A DNA stretch of 64,000 bases from Minisyncoccota bacterium. GTDB taxonomy: Bacteria; Patescibacteriota; Minisyncoccia; Phycocordibacterales; UBA2100. The notes beneath the pieces were generated by a model. It was not told the origin of the DNA. It made no database searches and saw nothing but the letters and a program-made list of their open reading frames with translations. Within the stretch, counting starts at the first letter, position 1, and each line of letters begins with the position of its first letter. The translations under genes were made by a program, and so were the position numbers. The stretch spans positions 201,697-265,696 of the forward strand of contig DATJXE010000003.1 in NCBI GenBank assembly GCA_035500505.1. The letters are read 5' to 3'. This document shows, one piece after another, positions 18,846 through 38,639 of the stretch.

Positions 18846-20045
<1,200 letters not shown>

Positions 20046-20065
20046 TTCTCTCTAGAATTAAGCCA

Positions 20066-20100
20066 AGAAAACCCGCCGAACGGCGGGTTTTCTCGCTTTG
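20066..20100. terminator. Rho-independent terminator after tuf
   Basis: aaaacccgccg-aa-cggcgggtttt-ctcgcttt. Confidence 0.7.
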
Positions 20101-20138
20101 TCTCTTGCTAGTCCTGCGATACGGCATATAGTGAATTT

Positions 20139-20915
20139 ATGAAAGGGGTATTGTCTCCAATTGCTGCTTCGACAATCGTGCTCTTGCTTGCCTTTGCGCC
20201 ACTTTCAGCGAGTGCCGTAGTTCATGTCTCTGGATATGTAAATAGCCACGGCACTTACGTGGCTCCTTATGTGAGGAGTAATCCCAATGGTTTGAAATAC
20301 GATAATTACAGCTATACGCCTAGCCAGGGACTCTATAACCCAAGCTATGGCACAAAAGATACTGTGTGGGACACTCCAACATGGATTACAGATCCGAACT
20401 ATTATTCGGGACTGTCAGAATATCTTTCGACTCACGGTTCGTCGGGTTCCTTGGCCCCAGGTAATTACAGCGCGACATACCCAACAAATCTCTCTGTACC
20501 AGCTAATGCCACTGCATATGGTTCCACGTGGTATTGCAACAATGGCTATAAAACTATATACGACAGCTCGTACAACAAGATAGGTTGCACGCAAGTCGTC
20601 GCTCCAGCGAACGCAACGGTTTATGGCTCAGACTGGTATTGTAATACCGGATACAAAACGCAATATGATTCGTCGTTCAATAAAGTAGGTTGCACCAAAG
20701 TTGTGGCACCCGCGAACGCCTCCATCTATGGATCAGATTGGTATTGCAATACCGGTTATAAGACACAGTACGACAGCTCGTTTAATAAAATCGGCTGTGT
20801 GAAAGTTGTTGCACCACCGAATGCGACCGTTTATGGCAGTGATTGGTACTGTAATGCCGGGTATAAAACACAATATGATAATTCTTTCAATAAAATCGGA
20901 TGCATCGCAAACTAA
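20139..20915 (+). CDS. Secreted tandem-repeat protein (4 x ~40-aa Cys-containing repeats)
   Basis: Signal peptide, then four repeats 'VVAPANATVYGSDWYCNTGYKTQYDSSFNKIGC'. Markedly AT-richer than its flanks. Confidence 0.6.
   Translation: MKGVLSPIAASTIVLLLAFAPLSASAVVHVSGYVNSHGTYVAPYVRSNPNGLKYDNYSYTPSQGLYNPSYGTKDTVWDTPTWITDPNYYSGLSEYLSTHGSSGSLAPGNYSATYPTNLSVPANATAYGSTWYCNNGYKTIYDSSYNKIGCTQVVAPANATVYGSDWYCNTGYKTQYDSSFNKVGCTKVVAPANASIYGSDWYCNTGYKTQYDSSFNKIGCVKVVAPPNATVYGSDWYCNAGYKTQYDNSFNKIGCIAN
20490..20915 (+). repeat. Four tandem ~120-bp DNA repeats (coding)
   Basis: Near-identical units 'tatgg[ct]tcagactggtattgtaataccgg.tacaaaac.caatatga..cgtcgttcaataaa' read directly. Confidence 0.7.
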
Positions 20916-21004
20916 CTTAGAATACCAACTTGCGACCTCGCCATTCTGACGGAAGGGAAGTGGTGTCAGGTACCATTCTTTTTGCGCGATGATATTCTTC
21001 TGAT

Positions 21005-21400
21005 GTGAACTGGGACGAATTCGATAAGGAGATGCGCGAGCTGCAGAGCAGGATAGACTGGCGGCCGGATATTATTTGCGGGATCGCACGGGGCGGCGTG
21101 ATACCGGCGACTATTCTCTCGAAGCGAATGAAGGTAAAAGATATGTTCACGCTCTCGCTCGACAGGCAGGGCGAGCGCAAGATTTCTGCGTTCGCTATAG
21201 TCGACATTTCAGGGAAGAAAATATTGCTCGTTGAAGATATGCTCGAAACAGGTCGTGGTCTCATTGCCGGCAAGAAGTTCCTTGAAGAGCGCGGGGCGGA
21301 AGTGAGGACGGCCTGCCTCTATACGATGCCAAAATCAGAAATAGTCCCAGACTTTTTCCTGCGTCAATTTCCCGACGTCCAACATTTTCCCTGGGAGTGA
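21005..21400 (+). CDS. Small phosphoribosyltransferase-domain protein
   Basis: 'KILLVEDMLETGRGL' type I PRTase PRPP-binding motif. Only 131 aa. Confidence 0.5.
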   Translation: MNWDEFDKEMRELQSRIDWRPDIICGIARGGVIPATILSKRMKVKDMFTLSLDRQGERKISAFAIVDISGKKILLVEDMLETGRGLIAGKKFLEERGAEVRTACLYTMPKSEIVPDFFLRQFPDVQHFPWE

Positions 21401-21401
21401 T

Positions 21402-21935
21402 ATGAAGCTCGTGTTGCCCGATACGAAATATAAAGACTCGTTCATTCAGGCGGTGAAGGAGTTTCAGGGGGAGAACGATTATACGCATCGGAACCGATGG
21501 TACCGGAAATTATCGATTCTGGAACTTGAAGCGGACTTTGATGGATTCGTCGCCCGAGAGTTGAGCCATTCGCGCGGGGAGAATCTTTCCGAAGGATATG
21601 TGCCCATGACGGAGTACTGGCTTATTGATGGCAAAGAATTCATCGGGCACGCAACACTTCGTCATCGGCTCAACGATAAGTTGATGCAAATAGGCGGGCA
21701 CATCGGCTACGACATTCGACCAAGTATGCGCGGCAAGGGGTATGGCAACAAAATACTCGAACTCGCACTTAAGAAAGCAAAAGAACTTGGCATCAAGCGC
21801 GTTTTGGTAACGTCAGACGAAAGAAATATCGCCTCGCGCAAAATTATCGAAAAGAACGGCGGAGTTTTAGAGAATCAAATTCCGAATCCCGAAATGGGTT
21901 ACGACGCTCTTCGTTTCTGGATTGATATTTCCTAG
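21402..21935 (+). CDS. GNAT family N-acetyltransferase
   Basis: 'RGKGYGNKILELALKKAKELGIKRVLVTSDERNIASRKIIEKNGG' acetyl-CoA-binding motif A/B. Confidence 0.55.
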   Translation: MKLVLPDTKYKDSFIQAVKEFQGENDYTHRNRWYRKLSILELEADFDGFVARELSHSRGENLSEGYVPMTEYWLIDGKEFIGHATLRHRLNDKLMQIGGHIGYDIRPSMRGKGYGNKILELALKKAKELGIKRVLVTSDERNIASRKIIEKNGGVLENQIPNPEMGYDALRFWIDIS

Positions 21936-21937
21936 TT

Positions 21938-22480
21938 ATGGAGTCACAAACCGTTATAAGGTTTTGGTTCGAGGAGGCGACGCCTTCGCAGTGGTTCCGA
22001 AAGGATGAGAAATTTGATGCGGAGATCCGGCGGCGGTTTTTGGATGTTTACGAGGGCGCGATGAAAGGGGAGTTGGCCGATTGGCGGAAGTCGCCCGAGG
22101 GGCGGCTGGCAGAAATTATCGTGCTCGATCAGTTCCCGCGCAATATGTTCCGGAATTCACCGCAGGCCTTTGCGGGGGATGCGCTTGCGCTCAAGTTCGT
22201 GCAAGACGCCATCGCCGCAGGGGACGACAAAAAACTTTCTGTTCGTATGCGCCGTTTTCTCTACATGCCCTACATGCACAGCGAATCACGCGACGCGCAC
22301 AAAAAAGCACTCCGGCTTTTCTTTTCACTCCTCCCATCACAGTGGGCGGCCTTCAAATTCGAATGGAAGCACAAGCGCATCATTGATAGATTCGGCCGTT
22401 ACCCGAGCCGCAACGCAATTTTGAGGCGCGAGAGCACGCCGGCGGAAACAGAGTTCCTCAAAACACACAAGGGATTTTGA
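21938..22480 (+). CDS. DUF924 family protein
   Basis: 'IRFWFEE...QWF.KDEKFDAEIRRRF' and 'IIVLDQFPRNMFR...AFAGDALAL' match my recollection of the DUF924 consensus. Confidence 0.45.
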   Translation: MESQTVIRFWFEEATPSQWFRKDEKFDAEIRRRFLDVYEGAMKGELADWRKSPEGRLAEIIVLDQFPRNMFRNSPQAFAGDALALKFVQDAIAAGDDKKLSVRMRRFLYMPYMHSESRDAHKKALRLFFSLLPSQWAAFKFEWKHKRIIDRFGRYPSRNAILRRESTPAETEFLKTHKGF

Positions 22481-24478: not shown

Positions 24479-24847
24479 ATGACAGCGGAAAAGACGGCAA
24501 CCAAGAAACCTCGCACCTCGCGTGCGAAGAAAGAGGCTGGCCCCAGTCGGCTGCGCATTCGCGTGCGTGCCTACGAGCACGGCGTCTTGGACCGCTCCGT
24601 CAAGCAGATAATCGACACGGCGGCCCGCTACAACGCCAAGGTCGTTGGCCCTGTTCCGCTCCCCATCGATATAAAAAAGTACACCGTCAATCGCGCCGCA
24701 TTTATAGATAAAGACTCGCGCGAGCAATTTGAGATGCGCATCCACAAGCGCATGATAGACATTTTGAATCCCGAGGCGAAGGTCATCGAGGCCCTCACCA
24801 ACATTGATCTTCCTTCAGGCGTCAACATCGACGTGAAGATGATGTAA
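24479..24847 (+). CDS. rpsJ: 30S ribosomal protein S10
   Basis: 'RIRVRAYEHGVLDRSVKQIIDTAARYNAKVVGPVPLP...FEMRIHKRMIDI'. N-terminal Lys/Arg-rich extension. Isolated from the rest of the S10 operon. Confidence 0.85.
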   Translation: MTAEKTATKKPRTSRAKKEAGPSRLRIRVRAYEHGVLDRSVKQIIDTAARYNAKVVGPVPLPIDIKKYTVNRAAFIDKDSREQFEMRIHKRMIDILNPEAKVIEALTNIDLPSGVNIDVKMM

Positions 24848-25268: not shown

Positions 25269-26657
25269 ATGGGATTCTTGTATAATCGTGCTGTGTCCGT
25301 CGCCCGTCGTTTTACGTTTGAATCATACTCGCTCGACACCGATCAGTCCGTAATCACGTTCACCTACCTGGTCGAATTTGAAGGCGGACACCAAGCGCGA
25401 TATGACGATCGGCTCGAATTTCCTGGCACCACGCGGACGATGTGGGAGCGTATTCCAAAGCCTGTTCTTTCGCAACTACTGCAAAGTCTGACCATACTGC
25501 ACGGCAGCGCGTATTGGAAACTCGATCATGCGGGAGAACTTGTCATCAGAGGATTTAGCCTGACTCGCGCGCAAGCAGATTTTTGGAATGAGGTGTATAC
25601 GAAGGGATTCGGGGAATTCTTTTATAGATCAAACATAGACCACAGAGGGCTGGTTTCCTTCCCATACCGCACTCGGTGGTGGTCAGGCCCGTTGTCAACA
25701 AGATTCAAACGTTCCCCACGCACCCTTCTCCTCAACGGCGGCGGCAAGGATACGGTCGTCTCCGCGGAAATGCTCAAAGAGGCCAGCATCGGCTTCGATC
25801 TGTTCACGTTGGCGAATGTTGGCGCAAAGAAGCGCGTCGCGGAGCACATCGGAACAAGGAACATCACGGTGAAACGCAGGGTCGATCCGGCAGCAGCGAG
25901 GACCGCACAGAGAATGAATGTCGCGCCCGGCGGACTTTTTACACTCACGCTCGGATTCCAGGCGCTCCTTGCGGCCACACTGTGGGACTATCGGTATGTT
26001 GTCTTCTCGAACGAGCAAAGCGCCGACATTGGCAACACCAAGTATCTCGGTCTTGACGTGAATCACCAGTGGACCAAGTCGAGGGAAGCGGAAGAACTCA
26101 CCCGGAAGTACGTGCGAACGTTCATCACGCCCGACGTGGAAGTTTTTTCGCTTTTGCGCCAATTCACCGAGATTGAAACGACGCGCCGCTTCAGCCTATA
26201 TTCGAAGTATTTCGATGCATTCTGCAGTTGCAACATGAATTCTCACGTGTCTCCTGACGAACAAGAAAACGCCCCGCGTTCCGGTTGGTGCGGCAAGTGC
26301 GCGAAGTGCATTTTCATATTTGCAGGTCTCACGGCGTTTTTACCGAAGGAGACGGTTGTCGGTATTTTCGGGCGCAACTTGTATCAAGATACGGCGCTGT
26401 TACCGGTGTTCAGGCAACTGCTCGGGCTGCAAGGCATCAAGCCATTCGAATGCGTGGGCACCTCCGAAGAAATGCTCGTCGCGATGCACCGAGCGGCGCA
26501 AACCGGTTTGTACGATACCGATCCCGCCATGGACATGTTCCTCAAAGAGATTCCACGGACAATACCATTCGATGATATAGAACACCGCGTCCTTTCCACT
26601 CACGGAGAGTCGACCGTTCCGACGGAGTTCAAGGCCATGATGGGCCTCGTCTCATGA
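25269..26657 (+). CDS. PP-loop-like ATP pyrophosphatase superfamily protein with C-terminal CxxC motif
   Basis: 'LLLNGGGKDTVVS' resembles an SGGxDS PP-loop. 'GWCGKCAKC' resembles the QueC-type zinc motif. The true start may be internal. Confidence 0.4.
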   Translation: MGFLYNRAVSVARRFTFESYSLDTDQSVITFTYLVEFEGGHQARYDDRLEFPGTTRTMWERIPKPVLSQLLQSLTILHGSAYWKLDHAGELVIRGFSLTRAQADFWNEVYTKGFGEFFYRSNIDHRGLVSFPYRTRWWSGPLSTRFKRSPRTLLLNGGGKDTVVSAEMLKEASIGFDLFTLANVGAKKRVAEHIGTRNITVKRRVDPAAARTAQRMNVAPGGLFTLTLGFQALLAATLWDYRYVVFSNEQSADIGNTKYLGLDVNHQWTKSREAEELTRKYVRTFITPDVEVFSLLRQFTEIETTRRFSLYSKYFDAFCSCNMNSHVSPDEQENAPRSGWCGKCAKCIFIFAGLTAFLPKETVVGIFGRNLYQDTALLPVFRQLLGLQGIKPFECVGTSEEMLVAMHRAAQTGLYDTDPAMDMFLKEIPRTIPFDDIEHRVLSTHGESTVPTEFKAMMGLVS

Positions 26658-27952: not shown

Positions 27953-28162
27953 ATGAGAAAGCTCATGTTCTTTGCGGCTCTCGCGACGCTGGCGATGATC
28001 AATGTCTGTCAGGCCGCCGACGAGAAGAAAGTTACGACGGTCGACAAAGTCTGTGCGGACGACTGCTACAGTCACTGCGCGTCGCGCGTTGCGCAAAAGC
28101 TGACGGCAAACATTCCCGGCTGTCAGCGTTCGTGCAAGCGAACCCACAACTGCAGCAGTTAA
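27953..28162 (+). CDS. Small Cys-rich secreted peptide (69-aa precursor, 6 Cys in 48-aa mature part)
   Basis: Signal 'MRKLMFFAALATLAMINVCQA', SD AAGGAG. Spacing CxxxCxxxC...CxxxCxxxxxC. Followed by a hairpin + T-run. Confidence 0.5.
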   Translation: MRKLMFFAALATLAMINVCQAADEKKVTTVDKVCADDCYSHCASRVAQKLTANIPGCQRSCKRTHNCSS

Positions 28163-28185: not shown

Positions 28186-28218
28186 AGGGGGTTGGGCGTT
28201 GCTCAGCCCCCATCTTTT
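28186..28218. terminator. Hairpin + T-run between convergent genes
   Basis: ggggg-ttgggcgttgctcag-ccccc-atctttt. Confidence 0.4.
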
Positions 28219-29329
28219 ATATGAAATCATTCTTCGGTTCGTAATACGTCGAGCGATCTAGTTCTTCGGAGAACTTAAATTGTTCGTCGATGAATGGCCA
28301 GACTTTCTGCTGGACCACAAGAAAATGAAGGGATCCGCGTTTCAGTTTATTGTCGCGATACTCCGCATCTTTGGTAAAGTCATAGATAACGTCTTTGCAC
28401 GGCCATTTGTAGGTGCGCCACTCATTTCTTATTTTTTTGTCGAGATTATTCATGCTCCAGAGTTGGAACTCGTCGGTGCGGTAGAACGGCAGGTACTTCG
28501 ATACAGCATATTCGGGCGTTATGCGTGGTGCCATGTATTTCGAAACGAACGTTAGCGTGCGCATGGAAACCGTTTGCCACTTCAACGCAAAATTTATCCA
28601 CCAGAAGAACAGGTAGTTCGTTTCTACGGGGACAGGAGCCGCGTCCTTAACACGCTCGAACATATCCATATAAAAATTCGTCACCTCGTCATCATGCACA
28701 AGGGAGTTGTAAAACGAGAAAATCGTGTCTCGGGAGTACGGCTGATGTAGTGGTGTCGTGCCCAGCATCGCAATGAACTTCGCAACGATGTCAGAGCCGA
28801 ACAGTTGGTCATTGTGTTCGCCGTTGACGATGACATGTTCGCCGCCGAGGAGGAGCGGAAAATGTCCAGACGATTCAGTCTGAAGTTTTCCGTGAATGTA
28901 TTCTTTGTAAAAGGTGGGATATTCGGCGATGGATTCTTCGCTCATGAGTACCGTAATATTCTTTTTCTGCTCAGGGGTAGCATTTTTTAGGAACGACACT
29001 AACACAAGGGTCGAATCTATGCCCCCCGACCAGAATGTGTAGAGCGGAACGCCGAGCTTATCTGCGTGTGCAAGCAATTCACGCGCCCGGTCGTTGCATA
29101 GTTCTTCGAACGTCTTCGTAGTTGATTTGAGTGTTGGAATGGGGAAAAGCGATTCCGTGCGTATGGGAAAACGCACAGTGCCAGTCCGGTCGTTCGGGGC
29201 GACTCCCTGGCCGTATATCTTGAAATAGTTGGAGAACCTCTCGATACCCGGCAGATCAAAATTCGCCGTGTTCGCAACAATGCGCGGCGCATAATGAAGG
29301 AGGCGCGGTGCGTCAGATGACCGCACCAT
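28217..29329 (-). CDS. Asparagine-synthetase-like PP-loop ATP pyrophosphatase
   Basis: 'LYTFWSGGIDSTLVLVSF' SGGxDS PP-loop. AT-rich gene, 370 aa. Confidence 0.55.
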   Translation of the reverse strand: MVRSSDAPRLLHYAPRIVANTANFDLPGIERFSNYFKIYGQGVAPNDRTGTVRFPIRTESLFPIPTLKSTTKTFEELCNDRARELLAHADKLGVPLYTFWSGGIDSTLVLVSFLKNATPEQKKNITVLMSEESIAEYPTFYKEYIHGKLQTESSGHFPLLLGGEHVIVNGEHNDQLFGSDIVAKFIAMLGTTPLHQPYSRDTIFSFYNSLVHDDEVTNFYMDMFERVKDAAPVPVETNYLFFWWINFALKWQTVSMRTLTFVSKYMAPRITPEYAVSKYLPFYRTDEFQLWSMNNLDKKIRNEWRTYKWPCKDVIYDFTKDAEYRDNKLKRGSLHFLVVQQKVWPFIDEQFKFSEELDRSTYYEPKNDFI

Positions 29330-30044
29330 AACAATCTTTGTAGAAACGCTGTAAAGTTGCCGTGAGTTCCTCTACCGTCTTTGCTTCACGGGCGTTGTTG
29401 AAGTAACGCAGCCGGAGCAATTCCGTTTTCGCGAGCTGGTCTTCATCCATTTGGGACTTGAAAAGGATGTCGTTGGCAGCCTGTTTCGGGTCGATGTTCG
29501 CGAAGTCGGCGTACTGAACGACGAAGGGAAATTCCAGCAGGCGTTGCTCGTCGTATCCTGAATCTTTGAAGCCCTTTGCTTGAGCGGCTTTCATTGCATA
29601 GACGGTTTCTTGGAAAGCGACGCCAGTTCCGACTCGATCGCGCGAGGCACTTATGGTGGTCATAATGCGTCCGACAACCTTTCCTTTTTCAGTTGTGAGG
29701 CTCGCCTGGCCACGCAACGCATCGGTTACCTGTTCGGACGGTGTGCGCACGAATAATCGCTCGTTCGTCCAAGTCCATTCGGGGTATGACTCGGAAGGGA
29801 CGCCTTCGAGAAAGAAAGAGTCGGGATAATTGGGATAGTTCACCTCCTGGACGTAAAACGAACCCGATGTGCACTCCTCTAAAAATACAAGGGTTGAGGG
29901 GTACGGGGAGATGGTAAGGAGTCGCTTTTCGCCATCGAGCAACGCACCATATCTGCGAGTAAATCTCGGTGCACCCGTATCCGGGGTATGAGAAAAAGGC
30001 CAGCGCATATGTACCCATTTTACTGGGGCGTTCTGGTCATGCAA
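29313..30044 (-). CDS. Hypothetical protein (operon with ycaO)
   Basis: 243 aa with no motif. Overlaps its neighbours by 17-25 nt. Confidence 0.35.
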   Translation of the reverse strand: MHDQNAPVKWVHMRWPFSHTPDTGAPRFTRRYGALLDGEKRLLTISPYPSTLVFLEECTSGSFYVQEVNYPNYPDSFFLEGVPSESYPEWTWTNERLFVRTPSEQVTDALRGQASLTTEKGKVVGRIMTTISASRDRVGTGVAFQETVYAMKAAQAKGFKDSGYDEQRLLEFPFVVQYADFANIDPKQAANDILFKSQMDEDQLAKTELLRLRYFNNAREAKTVEELTATLQRFYKDCYGAVI

Positions 30045-31639
30045 TAGAGTTCATTGGCAACGGTCGTCATGAAAAAACGCTTGGTCGCTGGGTTATATGC
30101 AATTTTATTGACGATACGTTCGGTCGCTTGAAAGACTGATTGCCCCGCGCCAGTCTCAGGATCTATCGCGTACAGTCTCCCATCGTTAGAGCCAATGTAA
30201 ATGGCATCTTCCACCAAAAGTGGAGAGGCAAAAATTCGGCCGGCAGTGCGGAACTCCCATTTTTTCGATCCGGTATCAAGGTCGAGGGCGTAGACGCCTT
30301 TGTCCAGCGAGGAGAAATACGCAGTCTCGCCAATAACGAGCGGTGTCGAGTAACTCCCCGCGCTCGGCTCGTACGCGAATATCGGCGTACCATCGGTATC
30401 AAGGGCGTAAAACAGTCCGCCGAGTGAACCGAAGAGAATAAGCTGCCGTTTCGGGTCGTACGCAAAGGATGATTTTACGCTACCTTGCACACGATACTGC
30501 CAAAGGGGAGCACCCGAATCGGCTCGATATGCGTACACGATGTCATCGTTGCTTCCGACGACGACCATGTTCTTTTCTCGTATGTACAGAGGAGATCCGT
30601 GCGTGCACTCGCCGCTATGGTGCTGCCATACAACCTCACCGGTATCCATTCTCAAGGCGACCATGCCGCCTTGTTTCCGGAAAAGCCCGAACTCAAGGCC
30701 GATGAAGAGAAGACCGAGGTCGGGCGCAAGCGACGGTGAAGAGCCGACCCAATCCGCGTCTTCGTACTTCCATTTGAGAGTGCCCGATCGTGCTTCGAGC
30801 GCATAGACGTTACCATCGTATGCGCCGAAATAGACGGTGTCCCGGTGGAGAGCGGGAGAGGAAAAGATTCCTTTACCAGCCGGATGTTTGCCCGTTTCGA
30901 ATGACCAGGCGACCGAACCATCATTCTGGTTCAGCGCATAAAAAGTTCCCGCATCGCTACCAAAATAGACACGCTCGGCATCCAGAACGGGGGCGGACTT
31001 TTGTACCACGTAGTTAAAGGCGGGGTTGGGAGCGGCAAAATGCCATAGCTGTGTGAGCGCCGCTCTCTTCGCCTTCGGCGTTGTAAGTGAGAGACCGAAA
31101 TCTTCGAGTGTGAAAAGCTTATGCATTGTGCGTTTTTTGTCGAGCAGCGGCGCGTACGCAGTGTCATCCCTGAACGCGATAAGCGCGAACATGTCAGACA
31201 CGGCCAGCCCCTCGCGTTCCAGGACCTGTATCTGCGTGGTGAAGGTATTCCCGGAATTGACGAGATCGTCCACCAAAATAACGGGATCGCGTGTCGGGGC
31301 ACCTTCGAGGCGTCTCATGAGTCCTTGTCGTTTACGCGACTTTCGAATAAAAAGCCCGTTCACTGGTGTTCCACGTTCCATGCTTTTCATCACGATAGCT
31401 GCTACGAGGGCAATGCCAGCGCTTTCCATAGCGCAAACTTGGAACGGATACCTTTTTGCGCATGCATCCCAGAAGAATTCCGCGTACGCATCCAGCCAAC
31501 GAGGCTGCAGCAAGAGCGCGCGGAAGTCGAAGAGCCACGGCGCATACGAAGCCTCATCGACCATGACGATGGGCCGTTCTGGAGAGAAATGTACGATCAC
31601 GTCTTTCGCTATCGCTTCGCGAAGGGTTTTTTTGTCCAT
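30020..31639 (-). CDS. Phosphoribosyltransferase-domain / PQQ-like beta-propeller fusion protein
   Basis: N-terminal 'DPVILVDDLVNSGNTF' PRTase motif. C-terminal 6-8 repeats 'VYFGSDAGTFYALNQNDGSVAWSF', 'VYALEARSGTLKWKY', etc. (PQQ/BamB-like). Confidence 0.6.
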   Translation of the reverse strand: MDKKTLREAIAKDVIVHFSPERPIVMVDEASYAPWLFDFRALLLQPRWLDAYAEFFWDACAKRYPFQVCAMESAGIALVAAIVMKSMERGTPVNGLFIRKSRKRQGLMRRLEGAPTRDPVILVDDLVNSGNTFTTQIQVLEREGLAVSDMFALIAFRDDTAYAPLLDKKRTMHKLFTLEDFGLSLTTPKAKRAALTQLWHFAAPNPAFNYVVQKSAPVLDAERVYFGSDAGTFYALNQNDGSVAWSFETGKHPAGKGIFSSPALHRDTVYFGAYDGNVYALEARSGTLKWKYEDADWVGSSPSLAPDLGLLFIGLEFGLFRKQGGMVALRMDTGEVVWQHHSGECTHGSPLYIREKNMVVVGSNDDIVYAYRADSGAPLWQYRVQGSVKSSFAYDPKRQLILFGSLGGLFYALDTDGTPIFAYEPSAGSYSTPLVIGETAYFSSLDKGVYALDLDTGSKKWEFRTAGRIFASPLLVEDAIYIGSNDGRLYAIDPETGAGQSVFQATERIVNKIAYNPATKRFFMTTVANELYCMTRTPQ

Positions 31640-31644
31640 GTGAT

Positions 31645-32388
31645 TCAATCGTGTACCTCTTGTAGGGAGCTCCTGGTGTCTTCTCCTCGGCACAGGATGA
31701 TCGAGAGGACTGGCTGCTCGAGCCGTTCGTCTATGTCGAGCAGAGATAGAGCAACTTCGTCAGAAAACCCGATGACAGGGCGCGCACCAATCTCGCACGC
31801 AGAAGCCGCGAGCAGGATATTTTCCGATAAATGTCCCGCTTCAAGTAGCGCCAGCATATAGGCGAAATCGCCGTACTTTGCGGACGAACGTTCCCACACA
31901 CTCGTGAAGAGGACGATTGAGGAAGCGGCGGGCGCCTCTGGGGCGCGTACCAGATCACTCATCGAAAAGTCAGTTGGAACGTCCCAGAGCCGCTCGAGCG
32001 CATGTTCGGTCGGATGATAATGGAACACCCCCGAGCCCGCCCCTTCGATCCCTCTGGAAACGATGTACGTTTCGATCGGAAAAAGCGCGCCGCCGGAAGG
32101 ATATCGACGCCGCACCGAACCATCGTGTCGCCGCAGCCCCGAAAACACTGCTCCCAGATCGTCAGTGGAAAGCGGTCCTTCGTTGCGCAGTTCGAGAAAG
32201 GAGCGTCTGTGGCGAAGCGCCTGAGAAAGCGGAGTTTGTAGCTCCGTTCGCGGCAAGACGAACTGCTGCATGCGAGGGTATTCTTTATGCAAACCCCTCG
32301 GGACGTCCTTCGGGTCGTGCGTTGCCCCGCGTCTAGTAAGGCGAGCGCGCCGCAAGTCGCCGTGGAGATCTGAAAGAAAAAAAGTCAT
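31645..32388 (-). CDS. SagB-type (TOMM/McbC-like) nitroreductase-fold dehydrogenase
   Basis: 'LRHRRSFLEL', 'YPSGGALFPIETYI', 'SIVLFTSVWERSSAKYGDFAYMLALLEAGHLSENILLAASACEIGARPVIGF'. Confidence 0.7.
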   Translation of the reverse strand: MTFFLSDLHGDLRRARLTRRGATHDPKDVPRGLHKEYPRMQQFVLPRTELQTPLSQALRHRRSFLELRNEGPLSTDDLGAVFSGLRRHDGSVRRRYPSGGALFPIETYIVSRGIEGAGSGVFHYHPTEHALERLWDVPTDFSMSDLVRAPEAPAASSIVLFTSVWERSSAKYGDFAYMLALLEAGHLSENILLAASACEIGARPVIGFSDEVALSLLDIDERLEQPVLSIILCRGEDTRSSLQEVHD

Positions 32389-32389
32389 A

Positions 32390-33823
32390 TCAACAGAATG
32401 GGTGCGGTCGTTCGACGAATGGTTGTTCTAAAGGTTCGTAGCCGAACAGGCGGGGGACAAGTTGAAGCCGTTCTCCCCCGAGATGTCGCATCCGCTCGGC
32501 AAGGTGTGTTGGATGCAAATCAGGCATAAGGATCATTTCGATGTGCCACGGGGTCGGATTCGCCTTAGAGGAGGTCAAGGGTACCGAAACACACTCATAA
32601 CCTTTTTCTCGGCACCAATTCTCGATCCGTTCCAACTGCATCTGCGGTGTGTCGTCTTCCCAGGCCGCCCGAACGGGGTCTTTCTCTTCCCCAGAGACTA
32701 GGAACTCAAGATGGCGTGCATGTTCGGGGTCTTGCCAGTAATGCACGCGACCTCGGTGGCCGATATCGTCGACCGGTTTTGATGGGTCATAAAACTCGTC
32801 GGGATCGGCCTTGCGCGTAAAGCGTCGCGCACGCAATGCTTCCAAGATTGCTTTTTCGGAAGCATCCGCAAGTGAGCGGTGTGCCTTAAGCCCGAAGGCG
32901 AAACGAGGACCGACCGGACTAGGGTCCTCAAGGATCGCACAAACGGCATGTGTCGGTGCATCAGTAAGCATTGTGATGATGTGTACGCGTAGGCCGTAGC
33001 GTTCGCAGCGAGAAATGATAGCGTCGAGTGTCTTTGATCGTGTTCGTAGCGAAGAGGGGTGTATGCGCGGCAGTGAAAGCTGATTAAACCACATGATCAT
33101 ATACGATTCTCGTTCGATACACTCAAGCGCCCCGGCGAGCCGCGCGCCGATCCTTGTCGGCCATGTCGCAAGTCCTGTGGTATGTTGCATTCGTATCAGC
33201 GGTTCCTGAGGAGATACTTTAAATGGACCCCACGCCGCACTAACAGTTTGCGCCGGCACGTAGATTTTTTTACCGCTTACGAGTGATGTCCCTTCAATCC
33301 ATAGATACGATGCTTCGGGAGGGAGGCGAAACTGTGACGATTGCAGGCGTTGTGCCTCTGAAAAAGAAACGAATTGATGTGGAGCGATGATAGGGAAGCG
33401 AGCTCGCATTTCGTCAATCGTGCCGCGTCGCGGACGGACGAAGTAATCGCGCTGTGTCCACCAAATGTAACGTTCAAGGCCTTCTGCGAGCGCTGCAAAG
33501 AGAGCAGACGTATCGTTGTCGACCGACGAACCGCCGGCGAAGTTTTCCGCGGAGTCTCTCACTCGACAGATCCAGTGTCGCACTCCTGGTTCATCTGGCA
33601 ATCCTTCCGTAGGACCGTACCAGCTCACGACGCCCCGGTCGATGAGCTTCGTCGCGACAGACAATGGTTCTGCTAGGTCAGCGCGACCGAACGGCACGCG
33701 CCTTTTATCGTACAGCACGGTGACGCCGAGCCTTCGCTCAATGAATTCGAGGAAAGAAACTATGGCTCGTCGCCCCCGATTTTCTTGAGCGACGTCATCA
33801 AACCGCACTCCGTCGATGAGCAT
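32390..33823 (-). CDS. ycaO: YcaO-domain ATP-dependent cyclodehydratase
   Basis: 'AGGSSVDNDTSALFAALAEGLERY' and 'TTGLATWPTRIGARLAGALECIERESYMIMW' YcaO signatures. Pro-rich C-terminus 'ERPHPFC'. Confidence 0.8.
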   Translation of the reverse strand: MLIDGVRFDDVAQENRGRRAIVSFLEFIERRLGVTVLYDKRRVPFGRADLAEPLSVATKLIDRGVVSWYGPTEGLPDEPGVRHWICRVRDSAENFAGGSSVDNDTSALFAALAEGLERYIWWTQRDYFVRPRRGTIDEMRARFPIIAPHQFVSFSEAQRLQSSQFRLPPEASYLWIEGTSLVSGKKIYVPAQTVSAAWGPFKVSPQEPLIRMQHTTGLATWPTRIGARLAGALECIERESYMIMWFNQLSLPRIHPSSLRTRSKTLDAIISRCERYGLRVHIITMLTDAPTHAVCAILEDPSPVGPRFAFGLKAHRSLADASEKAILEALRARRFTRKADPDEFYDPSKPVDDIGHRGRVHYWQDPEHARHLEFLVSGEEKDPVRAAWEDDTPQMQLERIENWCREKGYECVSVPLTSSKANPTPWHIEMILMPDLHPTHLAERMRHLGGERLQLVPRLFGYEPLEQPFVERPHPFC

Positions 33824-33928
33824 TCCGCGATTCTAGCACAAGGGCCATTCCACAGCCTGCCGCTTGGGTTACTGCAAAGTATCCACACGCCATGCGACTC
33901 AGCGGCAAGTACCTGGTACTATGGGTGC

Positions 33929-34234
33929 ATGCGTTCTGCCAATAAGAATACTCGGGGTCTCTTGCGGAAGATCTTTCTCTCCGCGACGATCGTATTCGGT
34001 TTTCTATCTATCATATTTTCAAGGGATTTTGGTGGAGCATCACGCCTGCTTTTCAGGGAACGGGACAACGGGATAGCGCATGCCGACGCGCCGAGTAGCG
34101 GCGGGGGCGGAGACGGGGGTGGAGGCGGCTCTGGCGATGCTCCCAGTTGCAACTACGGTGACGCCGGCAGTGGGTGCTCAGATTGCGGAGCCGATAGTGC
34201 GAGCGCGGACGCAGGCGGGGGCGATGCAGGGTAA
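33929..34234 (+). CDS. Candidate RiPP precursor: hydrophobic leader + Gly/Ser/Cys/Asp-rich C-terminal core
   Basis: Divergent from ycaO in a ~430-nt intergenic gap. Core 'DAPSSGGGGDGGGGGSGDAPSCNYGDAGSGCSDCGADSASADAGGGDAG'. Could instead be a chance ORF in G-rich DNA. Confidence 0.35.
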   Translation: MRSANKNTRGLLRKIFLSATIVFGFLSIIFSRDFGGASRLLFRERDNGIAHADAPSSGGGGDGGGGGSGDAPSCNYGDAGSGCSDCGADSASADAGGGDAG

Positions 34235-34254
34235 ACAACCCAGTAAATTTTTGT

Positions 34255-35400
34255 ATGAGCAAGACAACGGGAATAGCGATTGTAGGAATGGTGGTGGCGG
34301 TTCTGCTCGCTATAATTGCCGTCGTATTCCTGTATGAACAAAATTTTGTTGCACAGCCTTCTCACCCTTCAAACCAGGACCTCTGGTATGAAACCCTGCA
34401 GGACAATCCAGCGTTCGCACTTGCGCTCCAAGAAGAAGGACAAGGCGACTACGGCGCAGGCGCCGAGAGTGTAAAGCAGGCGCTTGCTTCAGCGGCAAAG
34501 TCCGACCAGATGCAGTTGCTTGCGGTGTATCTCGGGGTGGCGTATGGATACGCCGGGGACTACCAAAACGCCGTCACTCAGCTGGAACAAGTGGTTGCGA
34601 CGAACTCGGATACTCCGGATACACGTGCTTTTGCGGCCGAGCAACTAGCTCTTGCGTACTCGCGCAATCCGGCCGCGAACTCCGTGTTAGCAATGTTACA
34701 GCAACCCGCATATAAGAGTCTGTACGTAGCGACCAGCACAAATCTAACGGCGCGAGGACTCTTTCTGTATGCGACCGCGATCAAGCCGTTGCCACTTTCC
34801 GAATACAACATTGCGAACACGTTCGCTACCTCCATTTTCAACCAAAGCCTGGTTGGCACCACTTCTCCTGCCGGCAAGGCACAATTCGCATCCCTTGAAC
34901 AGAAGTTGAAGAACCGACTGCTTGCCGGGGATGCGGCTCTTGCCACGCTCGACCAGGTTCCTTATCCGAGTTATGAACCCGAAGCTCAGGCGTTGAAGGC
35001 TCTCGTTCTCGGAAAGCTTCAAATCATGGGCGACACAAGTTTGGGTGATGCTAGTCAGGCATACACAACTGCACTCGCAAGCTATGCGCTCCAGGGTGCC
35101 CAAGATGGACAAGTTCGCATATGGTATGCATCGTTCCTAGCGGCTGCTTACGGGACGTCGCGCCTCGCGGACATAGAATCTGTTCTCGCTCCGATTTATC
35201 AAGACCCGACGCACCGCGGCGTAACCGTGGTTTCCACCTTGCAATCGTATGTGGGTGCGCTCAATTCAAGCTCGAAACGAAGTCTTGCAACGCTCGCAGC
35301 CATCGACCCTCAGTTCAGGACATTTCTACAATCCTTAGGGTGGACGGCTAAGGATTTTTCAGCGACAATCGTTCAGACTTCGACAACGACGACAAAATAG
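34255..35400 (+). CDS. Hypothetical membrane-anchored Ala-rich protein
   Basis: N-terminal TM 'IAIVGMVVAVLLAIIAVVFLY', then a 350-aa Ala/Leu/Gln-rich extracytoplasmic domain. Confidence 0.45.
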   Translation: MSKTTGIAIVGMVVAVLLAIIAVVFLYEQNFVAQPSHPSNQDLWYETLQDNPAFALALQEEGQGDYGAGAESVKQALASAAKSDQMQLLAVYLGVAYGYAGDYQNAVTQLEQVVATNSDTPDTRAFAAEQLALAYSRNPAANSVLAMLQQPAYKSLYVATSTNLTARGLFLYATAIKPLPLSEYNIANTFATSIFNQSLVGTTSPAGKAQFASLEQKLKNRLLAGDAALATLDQVPYPSYEPEAQALKALVLGKLQIMGDTSLGDASQAYTTALASYALQGAQDGQVRIWYASFLAAAYGTSRLADIESVLAPIYQDPTHRGVTVVSTLQSYVGALNSSSKRSLATLAAIDPQFRTFLQSLGWTAKDFSATIVQTSTTTTK

Positions 35401-35402
35401 GC

Positions 35403-36209
35403 ATGGCGGCCGTGTCGACCGATCGACTGTTCTATCCGGCGTGGGCGATCGTGATCGCACTCGCGCTCTTTTTTTTGGCGCCTGAAGCGCACACGTTCGC
35501 GACGAATGTCTACGAGGACATGGCTTACGCGGTCGATCCCTCGGCGTCCCGGGCCTTCGCTTACGGAGAGCGACATTTCGATGCGACGAACCCGAGCGAG
35601 TATGACCTCGATCGTGCCGAGTATTTTTTCACTCTCGCGGCGAAGAAAGATCCGTCGACTCCCTATCTCTATCATGAACTGGCGCGCATTTCTTTTTTGC
35701 GCGGCGACTATAAGCAGGCACTGGCGAGGATCGACTTCCAGATAATGCTTCACGGTGACTCCGAGCCGAATTCCTATTACGTGCGCGGGCTCATTGAGGG
35801 ATACATGCGCGATTATGGAGACGCCATAACTGACTACACGCATTTCCTGCTGTTCGACCCCAACGACTGGGCCGCCATTAATGATGATGCGTGGGTCTTA
35901 CTCAAGGCGGGACGTTTTCAAGAAGCGGCCGATCTCACGACCAAAGGCCTGAAGATATATCCGGAGAATCCGTGGCTTCTCAACTCGAACGCGACCGCGC
36001 TTTATGAGTTGGGCCTCTACCAGCCTGCCCTTGCTGCTGCCGAAAAAGCCGAGGCTGCTGTAGCTACCGTCACGGATTCCGAGTGGTCACATGCCTATCC
36101 CGGCAACGACCCAACCATCGCGGGGGAAGGCGTCGCCTCCTTTAGGCAAGCCGTGGCTGACAATGTGCACACCATCCAACTGGCGCTTGCCACGAGTACG
36201 GTACAATGA
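35403..36209 (+). CDS. TPR-repeat protein with N-terminal TM anchor
   Basis: Several 34-aa TPR-like repeats ('YYVRGLIEGYMRDYGDAITDYTHFLLFDPND', etc.). Confidence 0.6.
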   Translation: MAAVSTDRLFYPAWAIVIALALFFLAPEAHTFATNVYEDMAYAVDPSASRAFAYGERHFDATNPSEYDLDRAEYFFTLAAKKDPSTPYLYHELARISFLRGDYKQALARIDFQIMLHGDSEPNSYYVRGLIEGYMRDYGDAITDYTHFLLFDPNDWAAINDDAWVLLKAGRFQEAADLTTKGLKIYPENPWLLNSNATALYELGLYQPALAAAEKAEAAVATVTDSEWSHAYPGNDPTIAGEGVASFRQAVADNVHTIQLALATSTVQ

Positions 36210-36220
36210 CGTAAAACCCT

Positions 36221-37933
36221 ATGAGCGGACAGAGTCATGCGCAAACGTTCGATATAAAGAGGTATGTTGCGTACGCATTTGCTCTCGCGATAGTCGCGCT
36301 GCTTATAGCCGGAGCATCGAGTCACGCGGCCGGCCACCTCTCGCCTGAAGTGAAATTCACCGATGCCTCCGGGGGCGGCCTCGCCATCGTGCCGGCGTCA
36401 TGCCCTTCCGACCCGCAATACCTTGGGGACTGCACAACTTCGTGCGACAACGGCCTCGACATCGCGCAATATCCTTCTTGCAGCTGCCCCGCCGGCCAAA
36501 CGCAAAGCGGAAGCACGTGCGTGTGCCCCTCGGGCCAGGTGTGGAACGGTACGCAATGCGTTTCGCAGACCGTGGGACCGAGTTGTACATGTCCGAGTGG
36601 ATATACGTTGAACGGCTCGACCTGTGCCGCAAACCCCGGCAGTCAGTCCTTTACGACCCCCACCCCCCCGGGAGGTACCACGTTCTCGGTGCCGCAAAAC
36701 TACGCATCTCTCACCGTAACCGTTCTGGGAGCAGGTGGTGGTGGTGGCGGCGGGGGTGGACCCATGTACTTCAACCCGACGAATGGCTGGATAAGCGGCC
36801 AGCCTGGAAGTTCGGGCGGGTCGGGCACTTCTTCTTCCTTCAATACGTCCGTCGTGGCTAACGGTGGCGGTGGTGGTGGCGGTGGTGGCGCGGGAAACGT
36901 GAACATAAGTGACGCTGGAGACTTTGGCACCAACGGAAGTCCTGGCTCGGACGGTTCCTCCGGGACTGCGAGCGGGGGCACTACCAACACAACAGGCGGA
37001 GGGGCATCCGGCGGCTCCGGCGGTCCTGGCTCGTCTTATACGAGCGACAGCGGCTCGGTCTCGGACTGGGGTGGCACCGGTGGAACCGGTGGCACGGGCG
37101 GTAAAGCAGTGAAAACCTATGCCTCGGGGGTGCTCACAGGGAACATCACAGTGACCGTGGGCTCCGGCGGCTCCGGCGGAGGCGGTCAACCATATGGCGG
37201 AAGCTCGGGCGGCAATGGCTCGGTGTCCATTACGTGGACGACCTCTTCCGACATCTCGGCGTCTTGCTCCTGCCCCAGCGGATACACCGACCAGGGCGGC
37301 GGTTCATGTGTTCTCTCACAATGCACAGGAGGAGAACTCCTTCAGGGCGGTTCCTGTGTTCCGACCTGTGGCATCGGATACACACAACAAGATTCCAGTT
37401 GTGTATTCGACCAGTGCCCCATCGGCTACGTGCAGGGGGCTGACAGCAATGGCAACACGACCTGCACCTTCTCCAGTTGCCCGGTCGGCTACACACAGCA
37501 AGGTCAACAGTGTGTCTTCACGAGTTGTCCTCTGGGCTACACGCAAGGAACCGATGCGAACAACAACGCCATCTGCACCTACACCGGTTGCCCGCGGTAC
37601 TACACGCTCCAGGATGGGCAATGTGTGCTCTCCACCCAGTCATCGCCTCTTGGGGAGATCGTCGCAGTCCCGTCGGTACTCAAGACAGGTGGCACATCCA
37701 AGATTTCCTGGAGTGCCGGCGGTGTCTCTTCCTGTACGGTTACCGGTTCCAATGGGGACGGCGGCTCGGGCTGGGGCTGCTCATCACAGATCGCTTGTGC
37801 TGCCACCACGACTCACCCAACGAGCCAAATACAATCGCAGACAATTTACACGCTCAATTGTACGGCCCTCGACAGCAGCACCTTCACTCGCTCCGCGACG
37901 GTGAATATCGTGCCGGTATTCCAGGAACAGTAA
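36221..37933 (+). CDS. Large surface protein: ~12 'CPxGYTxxGxxCV' Cys-hairpin repeats flanking a glycine-rich (Gly_rich-like) core
   Basis: Repeats such as 'SCPVGYTQQGQQCVFTSCPLGYTQGTD'. Core 'VTVLGAGGGGGGGGG...ITVTVGSGGSGGGG'. N-terminal TM/signal present. Confidence 0.55.
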   Translation: MSGQSHAQTFDIKRYVAYAFALAIVALLIAGASSHAAGHLSPEVKFTDASGGGLAIVPASCPSDPQYLGDCTTSCDNGLDIAQYPSCSCPAGQTQSGSTCVCPSGQVWNGTQCVSQTVGPSCTCPSGYTLNGSTCAANPGSQSFTTPTPPGGTTFSVPQNYASLTVTVLGAGGGGGGGGGPMYFNPTNGWISGQPGSSGGSGTSSSFNTSVVANGGGGGGGGGAGNVNISDAGDFGTNGSPGSDGSSGTASGGTTNTTGGGASGGSGGPGSSYTSDSGSVSDWGGTGGTGGTGGKAVKTYASGVLTGNITVTVGSGGSGGGGQPYGGSSGGNGSVSITWTTSSDISASCSCPSGYTDQGGGSCVLSQCTGGELLQGGSCVPTCGIGYTQQDSSCVFDQCPIGYVQGADSNGNTTCTFSSCPVGYTQQGQQCVFTSCPLGYTQGTDANNNAICTYTGCPRYYTLQDGQCVLSTQSSPLGEIVAVPSVLKTGGTSKISWSAGGVSSCTVTGSNGDGGSGWGCSSQIACAATTTHPTSQIQSQTIYTLNCTALDSSTFTRSATVNIVPVFQEQ

Positions 37934-37982
37934 GCGTGGGGAAAAACGTCCGCGCCGCCTGGCTCGATGCTATAGTTGTTGC

Positions 37983-38429
37983 ATGCAGAGAGTTTCTCTC
38001 CGGACGTTCGCTTTCCCGCTGGCCCTTGCGGTTGCGATAGTTTCGGCAAGCGCGGCGTTTGCGTATGCGCAGACCACAACCGACGCGCAACTTCGCGCGA
38101 CCATCCAGGCCGAAGTGACGGCCGATCCGCGTTCGCAAACGATGTCGCAGGCGCAGATACAAGCGCTTGTCGACTCGCTCACCGCCCAGGCACAGGCGCA
38201 AGGCCTCACGGCTTCGCAGCTCACCTATCGTGCGCCCACCCAAACTCCGGAGACTTCCTTGCCCGCGCCGAGTTCGCAGTGCACGACGTTCTCCTGTTCG
38301 CTCGCCCGCGCGTTCGGGCTCGACGGCTCCGTTCCCATCATCCCCATTGCGCTTTTTGTGGCGGCGGCACTCTTCATTCTTCTTTTCAGCATCATGCGCG
38401 AGTTAGGGCATCCGCACGCACAGGCTTAG
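37983..38429 (+). CDS. Hypothetical secreted protein with C-terminal TM anchor
   Basis: Signal 'AFPLALAVAIVSASAAFAYA'. C-terminal 'IIPIALFVAAALFILLF'. Confidence 0.4.
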   Translation: MQRVSLRTFAFPLALAVAIVSASAAFAYAQTTTDAQLRATIQAEVTADPRSQTMSQAQIQALVDSLTAQAQAQGLTASQLTYRAPTQTPETSLPAPSSQCTTFSCSLARAFGLDGSVPIIPIALFVAAALFILLFSIMRELGHPHAQA

Positions 38430-38434
38430 AGCGT

Positions 38435-38562
38435 GCGGCGAAGCAGCATGAGTTTTTGAATATCTCGGCTTTGCCACCGTTCTCTTTCTCTGTGCCGGAC
38501 TCTGCCGCAAGAAAACCATTTTGGAAAAATGTGGTAAACAAAAACTCATGCTGCTTCGCCGC
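38435..38562. repeat. Perfect 24-bp inverted repeat (arms 38435-38458, 38539-38562; 80-nt spacer)
   Basis: gcggcgaagcagcatgagtttttg / caaaaactcatgctgcttcgccgc. It starts 6 nt after a stop codon, upstream of the rplC operon. Confidence 0.85.
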
Positions 38563-38639
38563 ATAGCGGCATAGTTGCACGCCTTCTTTTTTCGTATATA
38601 GTGCTTCCACCCAAGTCCGTATATGGACCAATGGTGAGC

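Follow-up and report, generated by a model that had tools for sequence, protein, structure and literature searches.

A small open reading frame (ORF) that lies between a divergently oriented YcaO gene and the next long gene in the genome of a Minisyncoccota bacterium is a real, conserved gene, and we propose that it encodes the precursor peptide of an azole-containing natural product. All positions refer to the 64,000-nucleotide (nt) window of contig DATJXE010000003.1 (assembly GCA_035500505.1) that was analysed, in which the ORF occupies positions 33929-34234. From its conservation, its organisation and its neighbours we consider it probable (about 0.72) that this ORF encodes the precursor of the adjacent pair formed by a YcaO protein and a SagB-family flavin mononucleotide (FMN) dehydrogenase. 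The system is most likely one of the ribosomally synthesised peptides with post-translational modifications (RiPPs), of the type known as linear azol(in)e-containing peptides (LAPs) or thiazole/oxazole-modified microcins (TOMMs), conserved across Parcubacteria/Paceibacterota, and the Gly/Ser/Cys/Asp-rich tail of the peptide would most likely be converted to the azole-containing product.

To our knowledge, the genomes of the candidate phyla radiation (CPR), or Patescibacteria, are tiny, and there is no cultured representative of the Parcubacteria. YcaO genes of the CPR had earlier been noted without a defined substrate family, and a precursor family that can be aligned and numbers more than 50 sequences can now be tied to one YcaO/SagB clade. 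The type of locus, a YcaO together with a nitroreductase, is already reported in the CPR; the study concerned counts 110 LAP clusters in 93 further CPR genomes, 51 of these being Parcubacteria, with a nitroreductase adjacent in 89 of the LAP clusters (Sharrar et al., 2020, mBio, PMC7298704).

A conserved gene opposite the YcaO gene

The YcaO gene (32390-33823, minus strand) and the next long gene (34255-35400, plus strand) are separated by 431 nt, in agreement with the gap of about 430 nt to which a first-pass annotation of this DNA had drawn attention. Inside the gap sits an ATG-started ORF of 101 amino acids (aa) on the plus strand, nested in a TTG-started ORF of 149 aa, and the Pro-rich antisense ORF mentioned by the same annotation is also present (33919-34152, minus strand). 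A promoter and terminator scan of positions 33600-34400 gave no sigma-70-like promoter and no terminator, a negative that is uninformative for a CPR organism.

To recognise the family we used a hidden Markov model (HMM) whose training set held only small ORFs upstream of YcaO homologues in other genomes. Among the 1204 six-frame segments of the window the full-length model matches exactly the ORF at 33929-34234, with an E-value of 1.3e-12 against 0.37 for the next best segment, and a model of the leader only matches the same frame (E 9e-7). Related loci came from a scan of the YcaO alignment which, at one genome per species, gave 35 loci, all from Parcubacteria-type metagenome-assembled genomes (MAGs), automated naming having labelled one of them an archaeon and several of them Saccharibacteria. 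A listing of small ORFs upstream of YcaO contains a similar divergent ORF at almost every locus, and the leader model finds a divergent small gene, likewise placed and oriented, in 32 of the 35; it finds none on a contig whose upstream sequence is only 29 nt long, at the second YcaO copy of a contig and at one distant homologue. Conservation next to YcaO homologues, which had been suggested as a check on the ORF, is therefore seen in 32/35 loci and also in both loci selected through the peptide.

Protein databases lead to the same family. A phmmer search of 1.84 billion representative proteins returned 6 relatives of the peptide, the top two with E-values of 5e-13 and 6e-13, and a profile search of 5.8 billion proteins returned 20, all of them named 'hypothetical protein' and several sharing contigs with YcaO matches (the peptide homologues are recorded as P0121-P0126 and P0130-P0148). 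Homologues are called by gene finders in other assemblies, and in the closest relative the called precursor has 93 aa. A tblastn search with the 101-aa peptide against the 35 loci gave no matches because the peptide is short and of low complexity, the family being visible only through ORF listing and HMM searches.

At the level of DNA, codon alignments were made with L036 and L037, the nearest relatives with nucleotide sequence available. In the three pairwise alignments the differences within the leader at first, second and third codon positions number 14/15/34, 16/12/32 and 15/7/34, and this excess of third-position substitutions indicates selection on the protein. In the test of codon usage and third-position G+C proposed by the first-pass annotation, the sense frame has the best codon-usage score of the six frames (-7.9 bits, the other five lying between -13.9 and -59.0), yet this score is negative, and the G+C content by codon position (0.60/0.62/0.57) departs from that of the genome (0.60/0.44/0.67) because GGN codons are so frequent.

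Leader and core of the precursor family

Our description of the family is drawn from 37 members. The window peptide consists of the leader MRSANKNTRGLLRKIFLSATIVFGFLSIIFSRDFGGASRLLFRERDNGIAHA followed by the core DAPSSGGGGDGGGGGSGDAPSCNYGDAGSGCSDCGADSASADAGGGDAG. Within the leader, which has a median length of 54 aa across the family, residues G24 and A52 are invariant (alignments A2/A3). Its N-terminus is basic, with a median net charge of +3, the value also found for the N-terminal segment of the window peptide, and often follows the pattern M-[VA]-x-[IV]-x-K-T-x-S. A hydrophobic segment of about 19 residues then contains the invariant Gly within ..V-G-F-F-x-x-L-F.., and is separated from the junction motif by a polar spacer of about 22 aa. 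The best 19-residue Kyte-Doolittle mean is 1.92 in the window peptide, with a family median of 2.09 and a range of 1.55-2.86 over all 37 members, and a charged n-region followed by a hydrophobic h-region, as in a Sec-type signal, is present as judged by hydropathy alone. The hydrophobic leader-like segment noted at first pass is thus confirmed at residues 11-30; the hydrophobic leader, listed by the annotation as a caveat, is no artefact and indeed the most conserved feature of the family.

The leader ends in a junction with the family consensus G-x-G-[VI]-A-[HQY]-A/[DE]-[AVT]-P, where the slash marks the putative leader/core boundary. The 16-sequence alignment A7 shows no variation at residues G48, A50, H51, A52, D53, A54 and P55, and A52 does not vary in any of the alignments. 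Every member has Ala at position -1, and at position -3 nearly all have Ala, Val or Thr and a few have Ser, Gln, Asn or Lys.

Sequence conservation ends at the junction, and the core that follows varies in length from 23 to 89 aa. In composition it is consistent, with G at 30%, S at 20%, D at 14%, A at 11% and C at 10.5% across the family (G+S+C = 61%) and almost no K or R. The Gly/Ser/Cys tail described by the first-pass annotation proves to be of this kind, the last 49 aa of the window peptide containing 18 Gly, 8 Ser, 3 Cys and 8 Asp/Glu. The number of Cys per core runs from 0 to 14 or more. Gly flanks Cys about 1.5-fold above the expectation from composition, Cys-Cys pairs are avoided (0.2-fold), and core Cys and Ser stand mostly in G-C-G and G/D-S-G contexts. 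Even in the closest clade, where leaders are 50-73% identical, core length ranges from 23 to 49 aa. Across these alignments a conserved leader is joined to a hypervariable core, as is typical of RiPP precursors.

Several cores have unusual sequences. That of L016 (5456-5857) is a (GSDS)n repeat of about 50 aa, that of L021 (5552-5929) ends in a run of ten Asp, that of L019 (1217-1549) contains TSSTV repeats, and the 89-aa core of L029 (2111-2617) has more than 25 Cys in CG/SC repeats. We also considered that the GGxGxD-like core might be an RTX-like calcium-binding repeat and rejected this, the repeats being without hydrophobic positions. When the window peptide and 27 relatives were compared with Pfam and NCBIfam, no bacteriocin or microcin family was found beyond isolated weak single matches.

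The YcaO and SagB proteins

The YcaO protein has 221 homologues at E<=1e-10, all named ones of which come from Parcubacteria-type MAGs, and an identical homologue is annotated as from a Candidatus Paceibacterota MAG. Exact-sequence look-ups of the window YcaO, P0127 and P0001 gave no record. Its best NCBIfam family is the SagD-family TIGR03604, matched over profile positions 5-376 of 377. An AlphaFold2 model of the protein (pLDDT 90) finds its best match in the Protein Data Bank (PDB) in the LynD heterocyclase (4v1v; E 2e-23, TM score 0.70 over 460 columns), followed in the Foldseek results by an ATP-dependent peptidase YcaO (7u58, E 3e-19), archaeal thioamide-forming YcaOs (E about 1e-18) and E. 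coli YcaO. The match to McbD (6gri/6gos; E 5e-14 for 6gri_D) is weaker than that to LynD.

The SagB-type protein scores 103.4 bits against TIGR03605, above the cutoff of 78.4, and follows YcaO in essentially every locus. In SagB-type dehydrogenases a Lys-Tyr pair is functionally important; the corresponding K171-Y172 and an R..PS.G motif are at least 90% conserved in an alignment of 37 sequences.

These neighbours, a LynD-like YcaO and a SagB-family dehydrogenase above its cutoff, support reading the peptide as a precursor. The first-pass annotation claimed in essence that the divergent YcaO has its candidate precursor in this ORF, and that conservation and coding signal would decide against or for it; by both of these the claim is upheld, as it is by the precursor-like variation of the family and by the pairing with YcaO and SagB. 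The strict linkage holds in the other direction as well: two loci were retrieved peptide-first, and YcaO-SagB adjoin the peptide gene in both, this reverse association covering few loci, as the peptide-first search of metagenome contigs confirmed 2 of 213 pattern matches.

A possible route of maturation

For the chemistry of the core, the order of the steps, Sec export, cleavage at A-H-A/D and the biological target we infer the following scheme. A 101-aa peptide would be made with a leader of about 52 aa (basic N-terminus, GF(F) helix, spacer and G-x-G-[VI]-A-H-A/D-A-P junction) and a core of 49 aa. In the cytoplasm YcaO would spend ATP to cyclodehydrate core Cys, and probably Ser, into azolines, which the SagB-family flavoprotein would oxidise to thiazoles and oxazoles. 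A peptide of about 100 aa may be finished before much co-translational targeting has taken place, which would leave time for modification in the cytoplasm. The hydrophobic leader could next function as Sec-type signal or membrane anchor in place of a dedicated ABC exporter and leader protease, such that a reduced genome would need neither; a search of the conserved-cluster proteins with Pfam and NCBIfam turned up neither TfuA nor an ABC exporter, a leader protease or an immunity gene. Once modified, the strongly acidic core would end outside the cell, either freed by cleavage after A-x-A (Ala-His-Ala/Asp) or remaining tethered, and might act there with the co-operonic, membrane-anchored TPR-like proteins. 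We hold the step of Sec export and A-x-A cleavage more tentatively than the rest, at somewhat less than an even chance.

A number of observations weigh against an azole-forming precursor system, or against parts of the scheme. The YcaO protein scores 177.3 bits against TIGR03604, under the curated cutoff of 219.25. A C-terminal PxPxP motif has been called canonical for azoline-forming YcaOs (PMC12338566), and the protein ends in ...ERPHPFC, that is P-x-P-x-[C/S], with the third Pro missing; the C-terminal consensus of its own family is PHPFS, in which both Pro are invariant. Most azoline-forming YcaOs require an E1-like, Ocin-ThiF or RiPP recognition element (RRE) partner, and no E1-like, Ocin-ThiF-like or RRE protein was found among the ten cluster proteins with Pfam, relaxed Pfam or NCBIfam; PDB-profile searches with the 243-aa and 370-aa proteins encoded further along the cluster likewise gave no match. 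Judged from the model, the YcaO protein at 477 aa is too short for an E1-like fusion, and its first 100 residues are without the beta3-alpha3 pattern of an RRE; a cyclodehydratase partner may be encoded elsewhere in the genome. On the side of the substrate, the cores of several members (L001, P0122, P0133, P0139) have no Cys at all and would depend on the cyclisation of Ser alone. Between the hydrophobic segment and the A-x-A site there is a median of 22 residues, much more than the c-region of an ordinary signal peptide spans; were the leader an N-in signal anchor, the core would come to lie outside the cell and out of reach of the ATP- and FMN-dependent enzymes, unless it were modified before export.

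Alternative readings

Of the other explanations, the one that survives best is that the ORF encodes a small protein, membrane-bound or secreted, whose acidic Gly/Ser tail is of low complexity, and which belongs by function to an envelope operon with the TPR-like proteins and the Cys-rich surface protein and is not a substrate of YcaO and SagB, these acting instead on another protein or peptide. It would account for the hydrophobic N-terminal helix, for the position of the gene (co-directional with, and 20 nt from, genes for membrane-anchored proteins), for the cores without Cys and for a cluster with neither an RRE nor an E1-like partner to dock a leader, and the score of YcaO under the SagD-family cutoff is also in its favour. 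Against this, the peptide gene adjoins YcaO-SagB in 32/35 and in both peptide-selected loci even where the other neighbours differ, and where a genome has two complete clusters in tandem, as several do (L006/L009 and L011), each copy keeps its own peptide gene. The tail, at 61% G/S/C and with its G-C-G contexts, is what azole-forming enzymes use, and the cluster contains no other conserved small ORF rich in Cys and Ser. We regard this explanation as rather improbable.

A second alternative accepts the peptide as substrate and supposes a different chemistry, with YcaO forming backbone thioamides or amidines or acting as an ATP-dependent peptidase, and the nitroreductase-family protein having a different role. 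Here the Foldseek matches to the peptidase YcaO (7u58) and to archaeal thioamide-forming YcaOs are relevant, as are the incomplete PxPxP motif and the lack of a cyclodehydratase partner protein in the cluster, and a 2025 paper speculates that CPR YcaOs act in thioamidation of methyl-coenzyme M reductase (PMC12153355). However, a heterocyclase is the best structural match and a SagD-type family the best sequence match, the core offers Cys and Ser nucleophiles in abundance, and the SagB-family dehydrogenase, which would be without a role in thioamidation, is always adjacent, above its curated cutoff and in possession of the Lys-Tyr pair. The core cluster contains no TfuA or sulfur-transfer gene, and that TfuA was not found argues against thioamidation. 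Taken together, we consider a non-azole chemistry distinctly improbable.

Finally, the ORF might be open by chance, in G-rich DNA that separates two divergent operons and is regulatory only. This would fit the ease with which such DNA yields Gly-rich ORFs, the Pro-rich antisense ORF, the negative codon-usage score and the absence of the exact 101-aa product from the gene-position index, but has a negligible probability, being refuted by the HMM match, the conservation in 32/35 loci and the excess of third-position changes by which the DNA mainly diverges, in a family whose leader is not low-complexity and is conserved as protein in more than 50 sequences, and whose members are called by gene finders in other assemblies.

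Comparison with known systems

The LAP clusters of the CPR described by Sharrar et al. (PMC7298704) share with the window cluster a YcaO beside a nitroreductase-family dehydrogenase and a small putative precursor adjoining YcaO, and the window locus very probably belongs to that set. The single cluster illustrated there, from Microgenomates, encodes an 84-aa precursor and a peptidase, and differs from the window cluster, which is without a peptidase gene. The accessible part of the text contains no Parcubacteria precursor family, no hydrophobic or A-x-A leader, no fusion of a phosphoribosyltransferase (PRT) with a propeller such as the window cluster encodes, no TPR operon and no ribosomal-operon position.

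Microcin B17 of E. coli (McbABCDEFG) is alike in having a core rich in Gly, Ser and Cys, with McbD as its YcaO and McbC as its FMN dehydrogenase, and differs in its E1-like/zinc partner McbB, its exporter McbEF and its immunity protein McbG, none of which was found among the window-cluster proteins. McbA has a short leader that is not hydrophobic, whereas that of the window peptide contains a membrane-type helix and is some 52 aa long, with a strongly acidic core behind it (14% Asp family-wide). The two precursors show no detectable homology, so that the likeness is compositional only. In calling the ORF microcin-B17-like the first-pass annotation was consequently right about the composition of the core and no further, given the lack of precursor homology, of an McbB partner, of an exporter or immunity gene, and the unusually acidic core.

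With the streptolysin S type of TOMM (SagA-I) the window cluster shares a SagB above cutoff, the SagD family as best match of its YcaO and a core rich in Cys, Ser and Gly; it differs in that SagC, the CaaX-type leader protease SagE and the ABC transporter SagGHI were not found, in that its YcaO lies under the SagD cutoff, and in the type of leader. The cyanobactin heterocyclases LynD and TruD are the best structural matches of the YcaO domain. These are fusions of about 750 aa whose N-terminal E1-like/RRE domains bind the leader, unlike the 477-aa window protein, the model of which has no RRE pattern. Standalone YcaOs, such as those of bottromycin, work without an E1-like or Ocin-ThiF partner, as the window YcaO apparently does. 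In contrast to the present system, YcaOs of the bottromycin type use a follower-peptide substrate, form a single azoline or amidine, and are accompanied by neither a SagB-type dehydrogenase nor a polyazole core.

In Pfam, NCBIfam and the searchable literature we found no precedent for the precursor family and its motif, for a membrane-type leader on a YcaO substrate, for the apparent independence from a partner or for the conserved PRT-propeller protein. The motif G-x-G-V-A-H-A-D-A-P is recognisable and can be used for mining. If the proposed scheme holds, the cluster would provide an azole-forming YcaO that needs no RRE partner and a RiPP with a Sec-type signal as leader, an arrangement that would suit the economy of a reduced genome and could be of use to engineers as a minimal system. 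Its position in a ribosomal operon, described below, and the breadth of its conservation would then suggest that its role is central to how these bacteria live.

Neighbouring genes and cluster organisation

The order YcaO-SagB-(PRT-propeller), with the divergent precursor followed by the 381-aa protein and the TPR protein, recurs across loci, both peptide-selected ones included, and is identical in the closest relative. The coordinates of all features are collected in Table 1.

Table 1. Features of the precursor gene and of the surrounding cluster, in window coordinates.
Feature	Position	Strand	Description
Accessory PP-loop protein, putative ATP pyrophosphatase	28217-29329	-	370 aa; WSGGIDST invariant in alignment A5
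Conserved accessory protein	29313-30044	-	243 aa; homologues in 5 loci and closest relative
Fusion of type I PRT-like domain and PQQ-like beta-propeller	30020-31693	-	557 aa
SagB-family FMN dehydrogenase, putative azoline oxidase	31645-32388	-	247 aa; TIGR03605, PF00881
YcaO, putative cyclodehydratase	32390-33823	-	477 aa; PF02624, E 4.6e-40
Divergent intergenic region, YcaO to precursor gene	33824-33928		105 nt; from coordinates
Precursor peptide gene (putative precursor)	33929-34234	+	101 aa plus stop; HMM, homologues, YcaO linkage, third-codon-position excess
Leader region	33929-34084	+	aa 1-52, ends Ala-His-Ala; conserved part of alignments A2/A3
Hydrophobic helix of leader	33959-34018	+	aa 11-30, LLRKIFLSATIVFGFLSIIF; holds invariant Gly24; predicted membrane-spanning or signal h-region
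Junction motif G-I-A-H-A/D-A-P	34070-34093	+	aa 48-55; putative leader/core boundary, A-x-A pattern
Core region	34085-34231	+	aa 53-101, DAPSSGGGGDGGGGGSGDAPSCNYGDAGSGCSDCGADSASADAGGGDAG; 0 Lys/Arg
Protein with transmembrane helix and all-helical TPR-like repeats	34255-35400	+	381 aa; starts 20 nt past precursor; weak TPR matches
TPR protein, hydrophobic N-terminus	35403-36209	+	268 aa; TPR_2, E 8e-13
Cys-rich, Gly-rich protein, hydrophobic N-terminus	36221-37933	+	570 aa; EGF-like repeats

On the minus strand, the gene for the PRT-propeller fusion stands directly after SagB in 21 related loci. The protein has a pyrE-like match at aa 61-197 (E 2.6e-9) and matches to propeller families (E 6e-52), and both the phosphoribosyl pyrophosphate loop, VILVDDLVNSGNT, of its orotate-phosphoribosyltransferase-like domain and an RKSRK flexible loop are conserved in 22 sequences. 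No literature was found on PRT-propeller proteins in YcaO clusters, and the fusion may be a new tailoring enzyme. The pair of genes for the 243-aa and 370-aa proteins follows the propeller gene in the window, in 4-5 loci and in the closest relative, and the PP-loop gene has this same distribution. The 243-aa protein has no Pfam, NCBIfam or PDB-profile match; the 370-aa protein has no PDB match and only a weak Asn_synthase match over its motif (E 0.18). The two form an accessory module, which perhaps acts on the Asp-rich core. Lasso cyclases are Asn-synthetase-like, and a lasso-peptide reading of the PP-loop protein was rejected, there being no B1/B2 protein and the first core residue being Asp/Glu.

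On the plus strand, all three other genes of the precursor operon begin with hydrophobic segments. The 381-aa gene follows the precursor in at least 12 loci, as well as in L036, L037 and the contigs of P0121/P0139; an AlphaFold2 model of its product, from a 3-sequence alignment, is all-alpha with a helix at 3-29 and of low confidence (pLDDT 64). Homologues of the 268-aa TPR protein number 27 ORFs across loci. The 570-aa protein contains many EGF-like Cys repeats of the CxCPxGY type, long poly-Gly/Ser stretches and a conserved C-terminal domain of about 130 aa, and has the look of a variable surface protein. Partial homologues occur in 13 locus ORFs, and the closest relative has none.

The first-pass annotation had named a 6-Cys secreted peptide at 27953-28162 (plus strand) as an alternative precursor. 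This 69-aa ORF has a classical signal peptide, MRKLMFFAALATLAMINVCQA, followed by ADEKK, and six Cys in the mature part; neither the related loci nor the closest relative contain a homologue of it, so that it is no part of the conserved system, and we set it aside as an ordinary signal-peptide protein.

Genomic context

The YcaO/precursor cluster lies in an island of about 13.8 kb between rpsJ (S10, 24479-24847) and rplC (L3, 38680-39285), the latter being followed by the genes for L4, L23, L2, S19, L22, S3 and L16, so that the island splits the normally contiguous S10 operon. In L005, L008, L009, L015, L018, L037 and the P0139 contig the precursor operon is followed on its own strand by the genes for L3-L4, and in L031 by S10 instead. 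The position in the S10 operon, together with the breadth of conservation, suggests an old lineage trait that may have descended largely vertically, as opposed to a sporadically transferred antibiotic cluster.

A wider picture, which we offer as speculation and think unlikely, would be a lineage-wide, largely vertical Parcubacteria system at the S10 operon that makes a new class of azole peptide. The leader would be a Sec signal or anchor, YcaO would work without an E1 or RRE partner, and the PRT-propeller protein, joined in some genomes by the PP-loop ATPase, would add chemistry unseen in RiPPs; the acidic polyazole tail, accompanied by the TPR-like proteins, would be exposed on the cell surface or set free there, for host attachment, metal binding or an envelope function in episymbionts.

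Four further observations were made in the window. The 462-aa protein at 25269-26657 (plus strand) has no Pfam match, and contains an NGGGKDT PP-loop-like motif and a C-terminal CGKCAKC; in L021 and L026 its homologues (43-45% identity) are neighbours of the YcaO cluster. A TTG-started ORF of 196 aa rich in Arg, His and Cys, which separates the island from rplC (37976-38566, plus strand), appears non-coding by eye; it has weak translated matches in L008 and L037 (29-34% identity), and the closest relative has a called 155-aa gene in its place. ARAGORN calls a 98-nt tRNA-Phe at 14476-14573 (minus strand) with a sequence unlike a canonical tRNA, which is probably a false positive, and Rfam finds no tRNA in the window at the gathering threshold. 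Lastly, the G+C content dips to 0.48 at 20001-22000, against 0.54-0.60 elsewhere in the window.

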